IMG/VR virus record: IMGVR_UViG_2703719365_000008
Reading direction: 5' to 3' (one strand)
DNA length: 6,256 nt
Source: a virus
Lineage: Duplodnaviria > Heunggongvirae > Uroviricota > Caudoviricetes
The position numbers are program-made. Position 1 is the first letter of the stretch, and each line of letters begins with the position of its first letter. Positions 1 through 3,000 of the stretch are shown here, in pieces.

Positions 1-3000
1 TAATGCAACCGGCCCCCGACTGGCAGACGCCGCTGAACGGGATTATTTCATCCTCAGAGAACGGTTGATGACAATGCAGAAGCAGCTGGAAGGGGCACAG
101 GACTATATCCGCACTCAGTGCCTGAATTAACAGAGCCAGCTTAATCGCTGGCTTTTTCATATCTGAATTTCATCGCGCATCTCACGCGCATATCACATCC
201 CCGAGCCTTTCAGAAAGTTGAGCCTGAGAACTGTCGTATATGGTGGCGACCATCTCGGGGCGGCTTTTCTGTGAGACAGGCTCAATTTTCTGAAAGGTAA
301 GACGCTATGAACTATCCGACGATTGTTAACGGTATTGATTTCCGCGATCTTGTTTTTGTGACAGGCAACGAGCCGGTGACGGATACCCGAAAGGTTGCCG
401 TAGCATTTGGCAAAGAACACAAAGATGTATTGCGGAAAACAAGAGCCGTTGTTCAACAATGCTCAAAAGAATTTGCAGAGCGCAATTTTGCGCTTTGCTA
501 TGAAAACAATGAGTTACAGAACGGTAAACCCCAGCCCATATATCGAATGACAAAAGACGGTTGGACGATGTTGGTATTTGGTTTTACGGGGAAAGCTGCT
601 ATGACCTTTAAGGAAGAGTACATTCAGGCTTTCAACTGGATGGCTGAGCTTATTCAGCAAGGTCTGGCGAATCTGGAGGCGGAGCGCAACGCTGTAATGC
701 TGGAGTACATGAAAGAGAAAGATGTCGCCAGTATGTCAGGTCGTTTGCTCAATCGCTGGGGCAGGGTGAAGAAGCCTCAGTTGCTGGCAAGGCTGGACAG
801 GCTGGAGCAGCAGGGGCAGATTGCGTTACCCGGATTTGATAAAGGCATTTCAGCCTGACATAGCCATGCGCCGTATCGTCGCCGTATCCCCGCATTAACA
901 GAGACCGCAGCCACCTTATCTGCGTGAGTGTGCGGGGATAATCAAAAACGATGCACACCGGGTTTTCTCATTTTTCACGAGATGGGAGCGATTTCCCGCG
1001 AAGCCGCCTGTCCGGTGCGGTGGTGGAAGAAACCGGATAAAACAACCGCATTGTGCAAATATCGATCAAATATGGTGCTGCTGTGTGAAATCTGAAAAAT
1101 CACAGCGGTCATTATGCATCAGTTTTTAACACAGGACGTCAGAACGTGACATGGCAAAGCTGGACTGGAAAAAGCTGGAGCAGGCATTCCGACGCGAACA
1201 TGCCGAAACGGGAATAACATTACTGGACTGGTGCCGGAAGAAAAAGATTAATTACAACACCGCCAGAACCCGTATAAAAATGGGCAAAATCGATCATGAA
1301 ATTGATCATAAAACCGATCATGAAATCGATCATGACATCTCAGATGAAGAACCCTGCAATGACGCGGGTTCCGGCGATGAAAAATGCGCAAAAAACTCTG
1401 AAAAAAACTGCGCAAATTCGGCAGAAACGAAACGGATTCGTGGTTCCCGACTTTTACCACCTTCAAACGCTTTTTCTCAGCGAAACACCCACGCCGTAAG
1501 ACACCGTGGATATGCGAAGTATCTTGAGGCAGATAACCTCATGGATGATGCGTCCGACATGGTGCTGTTCGATGAACTGGTGTTCACCCGGGCCCGCGCA
1601 CTTTCAGTAACTAAGGCACTTAAAGGGATGTTCGCCGACCTGGAAGAGGCAACTGACGTGGAAACCCGCGTTGCTCTTTACGACAAAATACTCAAAGCTG
1701 AACAGGCCCTTGACCGGAATATTGCCCGTATCGAGTCAATTGAACGCTCATTGCTGACGCTGGACGTCCTGGCTGAGACAGCACCAAAACTTCGTGCTGA
1801 CCGGGAAAGAATCAACGCCGCCAGAGATAAACTCAGAGCGGAAACCGATATTCTGACCAGCCAGCGCCGGGGTGTTATTACGCCAGTCAGTGACATCGTG
1901 TCATCGCTGCATGAAATGAGTAATTCGGGGAGACTGGATGACATTCCGGAAGAATAAAACGCGATGTGATGAACCTGCAGAAATGACTGAGACCGAACAA
2001 CGTCTGTTCATTATGACAAAACTGAGCAATCCCTGGTGGCGCCTCAATCATCTCTACAAAATACAGAACGAAAAAGGTGAACTGGTCACCTTCAGAATGC
2101 GACCGGCGCAGCGCCAGTTGTTCCGGAGCATGCACAATAAAAATATTATCCTGAAAGCACGCCAGATGGGTTTTTCCACGGCCATTGATATTTATCTTCT
2201 CGACCAGGCATTATTCATTCCGCATCTCAAATGCGGGATCGTCGCTCAGGATAAACAGGCAGCCAGTGAAATTTTCCGCACAAAAATTGCTGTACCGTTT
2301 GATCATCTCCCTGACTGGCTGAGAGCCTCATTCACCATCGTTGAACGTCGTAGCGGTGCCAGCGGTGGCTATATCCTGTTTGGTCACGGCTCGAGTATTC
2401 AGGTGGCAACCTCATTTCGCTCAGGTACGGTGCAGCGCCTGCATATCTCAGAGCACGGCAAAATTTGCGCGAAATATCCGGCTAAGGCGAAAGAGCTGCG
2501 AACCGGTACGCTTAATGCCGTTTCTGATGAATGCATTATTTTTGATGAATCCACGGCTGAAGGCGTGGGTGGTGATTTTTACGAGATGAGTAACCGTGCA
2601 CAGGAGAGCACTGCATCAGGCTTATTGCTGACGGCACAGGATTATAAATTCCATTTTTACGCCTGGTGGCAGGATCCTAAATACAGCGCCAGAGTGCCGG
2701 AAAGCGGGCTGAAGCTGTCACGGGAAAAAATGACGTATTTTTCTGCGGTTGAGAAGGCAATGAACATCACGCTTACTGATGAACAGAAGCAGTGGTACAT
2801 CAATAAGGAAACTGAACAGCGTGAGGAAATGAAGCAGGAGTTTCCCTCAACGCCACAGGAGGCGTTTCTGACGTCCGGACGACGTGTGTTCAGTGCCGAA
2901 AGTACGTTGCAGGCAGAATCATTCTGTTCGCCACCGCTGATTGTTTATGACATTGAACCTGTTACAGGAGCGAAGACTAAAGCTCAGTCTCTGCGTGAAG

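Follow-up and report, generated by a model that had tools for sequence, protein, structure and literature searches.

A phased A-tract and TGCGCA-box site inside the small-terminase gene of a 933W-type headful-class phage

The locus and the candidate site

The stretch of DNA analysed here (6,256 nucleotides, referred to as the window) belongs to the IMG/VR virus record IMGVR_UViG_2703719365_000008 and is placed by sequence comparison where the late (morphogenesis) genes of a 933W-type Stx2 (Shiga-toxin-converting) phage begin, with positions 1100-2000 showing 99.7% identity to many Stx2a phage records. Its small-terminase gene, terS, the product of which (TerS) shares 99-100% identity with the annotated small terminase of 933W, VT2-Sakai, phi24B and other Stx phages, contains a site composed of phased A-tracts and TGCGCA boxes. 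The 933W type is treated in the literature as a headful class of its own, based on the phylogeny of the large terminase (TerL). A literature search found no paper mapping the packaging-initiation (pac) site or the virion ends of 933W/Stx phages, nor any mention of TGCGCA in a terminase context, and the site described below is the best candidate yet for the packaging start of these phages. It corresponds to nt 131-284 of terS, inside the gene of the small recognition subunit, and is best seen as a candidate pac with a degenerate box at 1281, YGATCA hexamers at 1291-1332, a spacer at 1337-1379, an arm at 1380-1416 and a tail to 1434. The parts are listed here, from terS inwards.

1151..1957, + strand: terS, small terminase of 268 amino acids (PHROG 370; match to phrog_370 with E 1.3e-124)
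1166..1273, + strand: predicted three-helix helix-turn-helix (HTH) DNA-binding domain, residues 6-41 (AlphaFold2, and weak similarity to the N-terminus of PacA)
1281..1286, + strand: degenerate first box TGGGCA (the orthologous position is TGCGCA in PhiR12_3-type and Citrobacter terS, from aligned linker DNA)
1289..1336, + strand: putative proximal arm, four 12-nt units, each with YGATCA (from the GATC positions)
1337..1379, + strand: G+C-rich spacer between the arms, predicted to be straight (10-13° at 1340-1350)
1380..1416, + strand: putative distal arm and core of the finding, with the strongest predicted bend in the window
1417..1434, + strand: conserved tail ttcggcagaaacgaaacg, coding SAETKR, with two short AAA runs

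The YGATCA hexamers of the proximal arm (1291-1296, 1303-1308, 1315-1320 and 1327-1332) lie in DNA coding IDHE IDHK TDHE IDHD, and a curvature of 43-54° was predicted for this arm. TGCGCA occurs exactly twice in the window, at 1385-1390 and 1409-1414, 24 nt apart and both times within the A-tract block. The distal arm reads A5-TGCGCA-A5-C-TCTGA-A6-C-TGCGCA-AA, with a unit length of 12 nt and TCTGA as a degenerate unit, and the region encodes ...DEKCAKNSEKNCANSAETKR... of TerS. The 12-nt unit tctgaaaaaaac was found to be an insertion of the Stx group relative to PhiR12_3, and the tail that follows is shared without change by the Stx and PhiR12_3 groups and is almost the same in the Citrobacter groups.

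The AlphaFold2 model of TerS has N-terminal helices at residues 6-20, 24-30 and 35-41 (pLDDT about 85), with NTARTRI as the putative recognition helix, and this HTH is proposed as the reader of the boxes. Residues 45-116, between the HTH and a long coiled coil at 130-239, were predicted to be disordered (pLDDT < 50), which suggests that the protein puts little constraint on the linker DNA. No TerS match was obtained in Pfam or NCBIfam, and a PDB sequence search with the family profile returned nothing relevant. A Foldseek search of the model against the PDB gave coiled-coil look-alikes only (best E 0.19), and was uninformative because the long C-terminal helices dominate the comparison.

A further sequence, attGTGCAAAtatCGATCAaat, lies in the intergenic DNA at 1050-1070, about 85 nt upstream of terS, and has a near-box TGTGCAAA beside a fifth YGATCA. 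It is conserved in the Stx2a prophage record L003, and its counterpart in PhiR12_3 is attgtgtaaatatcaatcaa; it may belong to the same site as an upstream element, or be unrelated.

Phased A-tracts and predicted curvature

The first-pass annotation of this DNA had described helically phased A-tracts in coding DNA, about 45 bp downstream of the GATC array, as a signature of intrinsic bending. The tracts are exactly where it placed them: A5 at 1380-1384, A6 at 1390-1395 and A7 at 1401-1407, with AAA at 1414-1416, 1425-1427 and 1430-1432, the last GATC being at 1328-1331 and the whole block lying in terS. The centres of the long tracts (1382, 1392.5 and 1404) are spaced by 10.5 and 11.5 bp, in agreement with the ~10.5-11.5 bp given there. 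The segment 1380-1407 thus holds at least three tracts of 4-6 or more bp, on one strand and with a repeat of ~10-11 bp, the pattern by which A-tract bending was defined. Three same-strand tracts of A5 or longer with 9-12.5 bp spacing were found in 0 of 2000 dinucleotide-preserving shuffles of the window, and three phased A5+ tracts in 1 of 2000 codon-order shuffles within the open reading frames (ORFs), so the phased pattern is beyond chance.

Curvature was calculated with our own three-dimensional wedge-model script, run with the Bolshoy-Trifonov, De Santis, AA-wedge and Calladine-Drew parameters. These four sets were validated on controls, for which the values per 31 bp were 72° (phased A6), 5° (A6 every 15 bp, unphased) and 83° (kinetoplast core). 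In all four models the top peak of the entire 6256 bp was found at 1393-1396; with the Trifonov set it reached 66.9° per 31 bp, against a window mean of 17.5° (standard deviation (sd) 9.6°). The smallest ratios of end-to-end distance to contour length for 60-, 100- and 170-bp segments were all centred between 1344 and 1419. The Trifonov minimum for 170 bp, centred at 1344, covers both the GATC array and the A-tract block, which indicates that the two bends add rather than cancel. The profile was curved at 1270-1325, straight at 1340-1350 and curved again at 1380-1415, and strong intrinsic curvature is accordingly predicted for the last of these segments. The annotation's proposal of a composite recognition and bending module stood insofar as two predicted curved arms surround a straight spacer within the most compact 170-bp span (Trifonov); it had overlooked the two TGCGCA boxes.

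The second-highest curvature peak (61° per 31 bp, Trifonov) is at ~2725-2742, inside terL, and is made by A6 at 2725-2730 and T5 at 2738-2742.

TGCGCA box arrays in related terS genes

About 115 loci of the TerS family were sampled overall, of which 29 were fetched from species-representative genomes and 80 from IMG/VR; many of them are closely related, and the counts overstate the number of independent observations. The TerS of PhiR12_3 is ~74% identical to that of the window and its gene is without the GATC array. In place of the array there are eight (A)n-N-TGCGCA-(A)n boxes, mostly 12 nt apart and with frame offsets of 1, 2, 2, 2, 0, 2, 0 and 0, so that all three reading frames are used. 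The last two are orthologous to the pair at 1385 and 1409, but lack the 12-nt insertion between them.

The same hexamer was found 3-8 times in nt 130-260 of terS in 24 of the 29 genome loci (Citrobacter, Brenneria, Serratia, Yersinia, Aeromonas and Xenorhabdus), and was the commonest hexamer just 3' of the HTH-coding part in ~65 of ~75 non-Stx terS loci. In a set of 31 loci that included the window (Escherichia, Citrobacter, Brenneria, Serratia, Yersinia, Aeromonas, Xenorhabdus and others), TGCGCA reached 20.9 per kb in terS nt 100-330, where it was again the commonest hexamer, compared with 0.47 per kb elsewhere (44-fold). Its spacings were mostly 9, 10, 12 and 14 nt, about one helical turn. 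In these 31 loci the box was read in frame 2 (108 cases), frame 1 (29) and frame 0 (12), encoding S/T/N-A-Q, V-R-K and C-A, respectively. Linker Ala-(Gln/His) was written T|GCG|CA in 108 of 121 cases, compared with 14 of 279 elsewhere in the same loci, and the box columns were 3.5-5x less diverse than the neighbouring columns in four groups. Taken together, the local enrichment, the use of three frames, the codon bias and the low diversity of the box columns show a constraint on the DNA and not on the peptide.

The box logo was AAA[C/G]-TGCGCA-A[A/T] in every frame, with A-rich flanks above the local background in most groups; long A-tracts were confined to the lineages of E. coli and Citrobacter. 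The distal boxes of the PhiR12_3-type (E. coli) and Citrobacter arrays are the orthologues of the window's pair at 1385 and 1409. With the PHROG-370-type prophages that carry TGCGCA arrays the window has the A-rich flanks and the 12-nt unit in common. It differs in that the main array is replaced by GATC units and helix 3 is different, and in box number: taking as an array at least three TGCGCA in mixed reading frames within about 130 nt directly 3' of the HTH-coding part, with A-rich flanks, the relatives have 3-8 boxes, whereas the window has two intact boxes (both in frame 0, with strongly A-rich flanks) and the degenerate one at 1281. This comparative signal suggests that the two boxes of the window are remnants of a family-wide array. 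The literature searched contained no description of TGCGCA-box arrays in terS of PHROG-370-type prophages.

Box type and the predicted recognition helix

The sequence of the repeated box was found to track the predicted recognition helix of TerS. Helix 3 of the type ARR[YH][IL]K accompanied TGCGCA (about 65 loci, the most repeated hexamer being tabulated), ARTRIK of the Stx phages accompanied GATCAT (40 loci) and AKRYIT of the Pectobacterium group accompanied TTCGCA (7 loci). In Providencia phage PSTCR3 (L115), AKRYIKIA was paired with five copies of TGCGAA, and in Klebsiella phage Chronis (L114), AIRKRAK was paired with GTACGCA(A), arranged as five boxes, a spacer and two boxes. The TTCGCA arrays of Pectobacterium, Brenneria and Symbiopectobacterium prophages (L010, L011, L012, L018, L021, L109 and L111) comprise five copies plus ATCGCA, at the same terS position. 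The peptides under the alternative arrays (SQIR, GTQ/VRK and ANxS) resemble low-complexity repeats and appear to be driven by the DNA boxes. In Klebsiella phage phi9.2 the TerS shares only the N-terminal 43 residues with this family, its C-terminal half being of another family, and six TGCGCA boxes come right after the shared part. The array thus follows the HTH rather than the remainder of TerS or the host, an association expected if the HTH reads the boxes.

These data also bear on whether the arrays bind some other factor, such as H-NS, Fis, HU, integration host factor (IHF) or a phage regulator, and modulate the late operon or silence the prophage. Curved A-tract DNA commonly attracts nucleoid proteins (textbook background), the site is at the 5' end of the morphogenesis operon, and SF6 TerS has itself been proposed as a transcription/packaging switch (PMC4737164). 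Nevertheless, the box type co-varies with the HTH of terS and not with the host genus, TGCGCA being found from Aeromonas to Escherichia and other boxes within Klebsiella and Pectobacterium, and the array always lies in terS directly after the HTH part, even in phi9.2. The G+C-rich TGCGCA core is not an H-NS-type site, and a search for the IHF consensus WATCAANNNNTTR with at most one mismatch gave no match within 1290-1480. This explanation is considered quite improbable.

An element acting in RNA or translation was considered as well, either as an mRNA hairpin of UGCGCA boxes or as a slippery A7 site from which a frameshifted or shortened TerS would arise. In the minimum-free-energy fold of 1365-1440 the two self-complementary boxes do pair, and the frame alternative to that of the A7 run is open to 1499. 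The fold was unexceptional (z = -0.87, with 41 of 200 shuffles as good), no Rfam match was obtained, and the boxes of the relatives (TTCGCA, GTACGCA and TGCGAA) are non-palindromic direct repeats unable to pair. The A7 run, which had earlier been called slippage-prone, is confined to the Stx group, and the alleles examined contained no length polymorphism or frameshift of it, which leaves that suggestion unsupported. Such an element is therefore regarded as very improbable.

Variation among Stx-group alleles

Positions 1397-1434, comprising the A7 unit, box 2 and the tail, were invariant in 21 Stx-group alleles. A mosaic allele boundary was found at 1435, right after the tail (...gaaacgaaacg), and is followed by a variable block at 1435-1498. 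Two alternative versions of this block, coding RIRGSRLLPPSNAFSQ or RNSRSGNPHPVARFSD, occur among the Stx alleles and also in the PhiR12_3 group.

The copy number of the 12-nt GATC unit (I/T-D-H-E/K) ranged from 3 to 7 among the Stx phages, with 3 copies in the 792-nt alleles and L003, 4 in the window, 5 in L066 and 7 in P0001 (TerS of 280 amino acids); the alleles compared included H79-H85. Judged from these sequences, the unit behaves like a variable-number tandem repeat within the terS of otherwise near-identical Stx phages.

A mosaic junction at TerS residue 55, suggested by tblastn in seven Stx2a prophages, was rejected and proved to be an insertion of the IS3 family of insertion sequences (IS) after a 3-copy GATC array. 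In L003 (LC727869, 2640-3950) and six similar Stx2a prophage records (H91-H97), the element lies right after the array; in L003 its transposase ORFs are on the minus strand, its terminal sequence is tgaaccgccccgggtttcctggagag, and terS is truncated at about residue 60. The 48-51 kb Stx2a prophages with an IS-truncated terS should be unable to package, to judge from their sequences.

Comparison with known packaging sites

The pac site of phage P1 lies in pacA (nt 193-352), where four TGATCA hexamers come first, then the IHF site given in the annotation, then the cuts as mapped and finally another three hexamers. It has been described as a 161-bp site with seven TGATCA/G repeats carrying Dam sites (PMC10028697, summarising Sternberg & Coulby 1987/1988 and Skorupski et al. 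1994), to which IHF and HU give a bent structure and in which synonymous mutation of the hexamers reduced P1 packaging (PMC10028697). The N-terminus of TerS was weakly similar to that of PacA by BLASTP (E 0.005) and hhalign (E 4e-5, probability 70%, residues 5-47), and profile matches were reciprocal, from TerS to phrog_1711 (PacA; E 3.4e-5) and from PacA to phrog_370 (E 1.3e-4).

The two sites are alike in several respects. Both lie inside the gene of the small packaging subunit, just after the part coding the weakly similar N-terminal HTH, and both are bipartite (putatively so in the window), with clusters of 6-bp boxes spaced by about one helical turn. The window's four YGATCA boxes are of the type of the P1 TGATCA/G repeats, with Dam sites, and in each case they form part of the reading frame as Asp-His (D-H-type) codons. 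The models of both sites involve a bend in the DNA, over the arms or between them, and a curved/straight/curved wedge profile was predicted for the window, PhiR12_3 and P1, with the known P1 cut in the straight part. They differ in that P1 has GATC boxes on both sides, whereas the distal arm of the window is made of TGCGCA and long A-tracts; this hexamer shares the outer TG..CA bases of the P1 hexamer without the GATC. P1 uses an IHF site and none was found at 1290-1480 of the window, an absence compatible with an intrinsic bend in the role of IHF. The distance between the arms is 52 bp in the window and about 90 bp in P1, TerS has 268 residues compared with 397 in PacA, and P1 pac is proven experimentally, whereas the site of the window is a candidate. 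Overall, sequence comparison makes P1 pac the closest characterised analogue, and not SPP1 pacL, to which the first-pass annotation had compared the A-tracts. Documented wrapping of bent DNA on TerS in SPP1/SF6 and at lambda cosB bore out the general part of that parallel; P1 pac, with hexamer clusters inside pacA, GATC boxes and a bend between them, is closer.

At 16823-17350, 933W (L117, AF125520) encodes L0094, a putative DNA N6-adenine methyltransferase with an annotated similarity to the methylases of phages T1 and HP1; it would be relevant should methylation gate the GATC boxes, as it does in P1 pac.

In SPP1/SF6, TerS selects intrinsically bent pac DNA in which AT runs of 5-7 bp are interspersed with GC pairs (PMC4737164), and in the model a ring of weak HTH domains wraps and selects the bent DNA (PMC4737164; PMC4856287). 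This pac (pacL-pacC-pacR) resembles the candidate in being a headful site that overlaps the terS region and in having repeated boxes in an intrinsically bent arm, bend and repeats being in silico in the window, and its AT-run/GC pattern is closely matched by A5-TGCGC-A6...A7-C-TGCGC. The hosts and lineages are others, and the TerS of the window has no sequence relationship to G1P (Pfam, NCBIfam and PDB). The DNA-binding domains of SF6 show little sequence specificity, whereas the family of the window has a sharply conserved hexamer with a co-varying HTH, which argues for base-specific reading.

Lambda cosB (R3-I1-R2-R1, with the I2 poly-dA static bend) likewise combines TerS-binding repeats and an intrinsic poly-dA bend beside the terminase cut. 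It has both intrinsic and IHF-induced bends, the intrinsic ones being functionally important (PMC4856287). Lambda differs, however, in being a cos and not a headful system, in that cosB is outside a coding-frame logic of the window type in Nu1, in the winged-HTH dimer gpNu1 and the central part of IHF, and in its measured bends of 28-35°, which are smaller than the bend predicted for the window.

Interpretation

The phased A-tracts are best read as the A-rich flanks and spacers of two TGCGCA boxes, in linker-coding DNA just after the HTH part of terS. From the comparisons above, the segment 1380-1416 may form the distal arm, with its intrinsic bend, of a bipartite pac site of the P1 kind inside terS, a reading that we hold at about even chances. 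We infer from these analogies a packaging function of the bent GATC/A-tract region, and with it the binding of the boxes by TerS, the role of the bend, the position of the cut and a residual working of TGCGCA in the Stx phages.

A number of observations weigh against the distal-arm reading. The similarity to PacA is weak and restricted to the N-terminal ~45-100 residues, and TerL showed no detectable homology to P1 PacB by BLASTP (E = 5.4), the large subunits being a further point of difference between the two systems. P1, with an ARRYLR helix and TGATCA boxes, is an exception to the pairing of ARRY with TGCGCA, so there is no simple recognition code. The literature search turned up neither binding nor cleavage results, nor mapped virion ends, for a phage of the 933W type. 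Strong curvature, which had been expected to be a conserved trait of the family, was ruled out as such by the locus percentiles: for 230-nt segments, only the window, PhiR12_3, C. braakii-type loci and two Aeromonas loci were in the top 4-8%, and the Yersinia loci, at the 4th-10th percentile, were among the straightest parts of their loci (family-wide median percentile about 0.7). Among the Stx alleles, box 1 is broken by synonymous changes in some (TGTGCA, TGCGCC) and the A6 tract is lost in one. Since the Stx phages have changed to the GATC type in both helix 3 and the main array, the two TGCGCA boxes may be relics.

The coding capacity of the region also accounts for much of the bend. When TerS residues 70-100 were recoded synonymously with codons drawn from the window's own usage, the mean bend was still 50° (sd 9.7, or 50° ± 10°) compared with the real 67°, and codon-order shuffling of the same residues gave a mean of 32° (p < 0.001). 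Peptide order therefore sets most of the bend, and about three quarters (~75%) of the predicted value is a consequence of the peptide alone, given ordinary codon usage. The real sequence ranked in the top 2.8% (Trifonov), 4.9% (De Santis) and 1% (AA-wedge) of the recodings, which places its codon choice near the most curved available.

The mean kept by the recodings supports a different account, in which a Lys/Asn/Glu-rich disordered linker, written in the preferred codons AAA, AAC and GAA, was expanded by 12-nt slippage, TGCGCA is left over from an array that the Stx phages dropped for GATC, and the bend is incidental. The A7 unit as a lineage-specific 12-nt insertion, and GATC units in 3-7 copies as a sign of active slippage, agree with it, as do the synonymous hits on box 1 in several Stx alleles, the lack of strong curvature in most relatives and the helix-3 change from ARRYIK to ARTRIK that accompanies the change of the main array. 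It fits less well with a codon choice in the top 1-5% for curvature, or with the invariance of 1397-1434 in the 21 Stx alleles and with box 2 and the tail being the same in the PhiR12_3 group (~75% identical), where the linker around them has diverged. A distal box pair split by an A-tract is also present in PhiR12_3 (TGCGCAAAAAACTGCGCA) and in Chronis, with its unrelated boxes (GTACGCAAAAAAGTACGCAA), and the peptide is predicted to be disordered and is shaped by DNA boxes in the relatives. On balance this account is judged unlikely, although it carries appreciable weight.

If 1380-1416 is instead the distal arm of a pac site, an oligomeric TerS would present several weak HTH domains, by analogy with P1 and SPP1/SF6, and these would bind boxes about one turn apart, namely the four YGATCA on the proximal side and TGCGCA on the distal side. 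The intrinsic A-tract bend would pre-shape the DNA for wrapping on TerS, making an IHF site unneeded. TerL would then cut for the first headful within or close to the straight, G+C-rich spacer (~1337-1379), which is thus the candidate cut zone, and packaging would proceed rightward.

More broadly, though tentatively and with some doubt on our part, these phages may represent an undescribed large class of headful pac, in which the linker DNA of terS carries an array of 6-7 bp boxes read by the gene's own PacA-like HTH. The boxes (TGCGCA, TTCGCA, TGCGAA, GTACGCA and YGATCA) would co-evolve with the helix, and the linker peptide (SAQK, VRK, KCAK and IDH repeats) would be dictated by the DNA. In the Stx phages the proximal arm would have switched to Dam-methylatable GATC, as in P1, with the distal bent arm replacing IHF. 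If this is true, the Stx phages would have a methylation-gated, host-factor-independent packaging start, which would also set where lateral or generalised transduction begins in Shiga toxin-producing Escherichia coli.

The 933W-type terminase is a recognised headful class, used by the phages that spread Shiga-toxin genes and by many Enterobacterales and Aeromonas prophages. A candidate pac of about 150 bp, in which the boxes are defined and both a bend and a cut zone are predicted, makes the packaging start, the specificity determinants and the co-packaging of chromosomal regions near Stx prophages testable. The motif is kept in three frames by forced synonymous codons and tracks the HTH across the family, providing a clean example in which a putative protein-binding site determines how a disordered linker is composed. 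In addition, the family supplies TerS/box pairs already matched in nature, with which packaging specificity could be studied or re-engineered, for instance in the design of phagemids or transducing particles.

Neighbouring genes

The remaining features of the window are as follows.

1938-3644: terL, with a terS/terL overlap of 20 nt (ORF list)
3644-5788: P22-type portal gene
5946-6233: short ORF

Upstream of terS, the window has a Rha-like regulator gene (Rha/ORF11CD3-type) at 307-858, whereas 933W (AF125520, 28073-28366) has bor on the opposite strand in that place. The upstream neighbour of terS thus differs between close relatives, which points to a mosaic junction separating terS from the lysis genes. 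In the records of phi367 and phi346 the sequence stops inside terS, just before the start codon of terL; these ends were taken as a conventional re-linearisation and rejected as pac ends.

The window ends (6229-6256) with tgaaccgccccggaaatcctggagac, which is closely like the IS terminal repeat of L003 and the first three bases of which are the stop codon of the ORF at 5946-6233. This ORF matched the first 95 of 188 positions of phrog_10452, or 92 of 333 of phrog_479; given these partial matches and the IS-like end, it is probably a gene cut off by an IS insertion.

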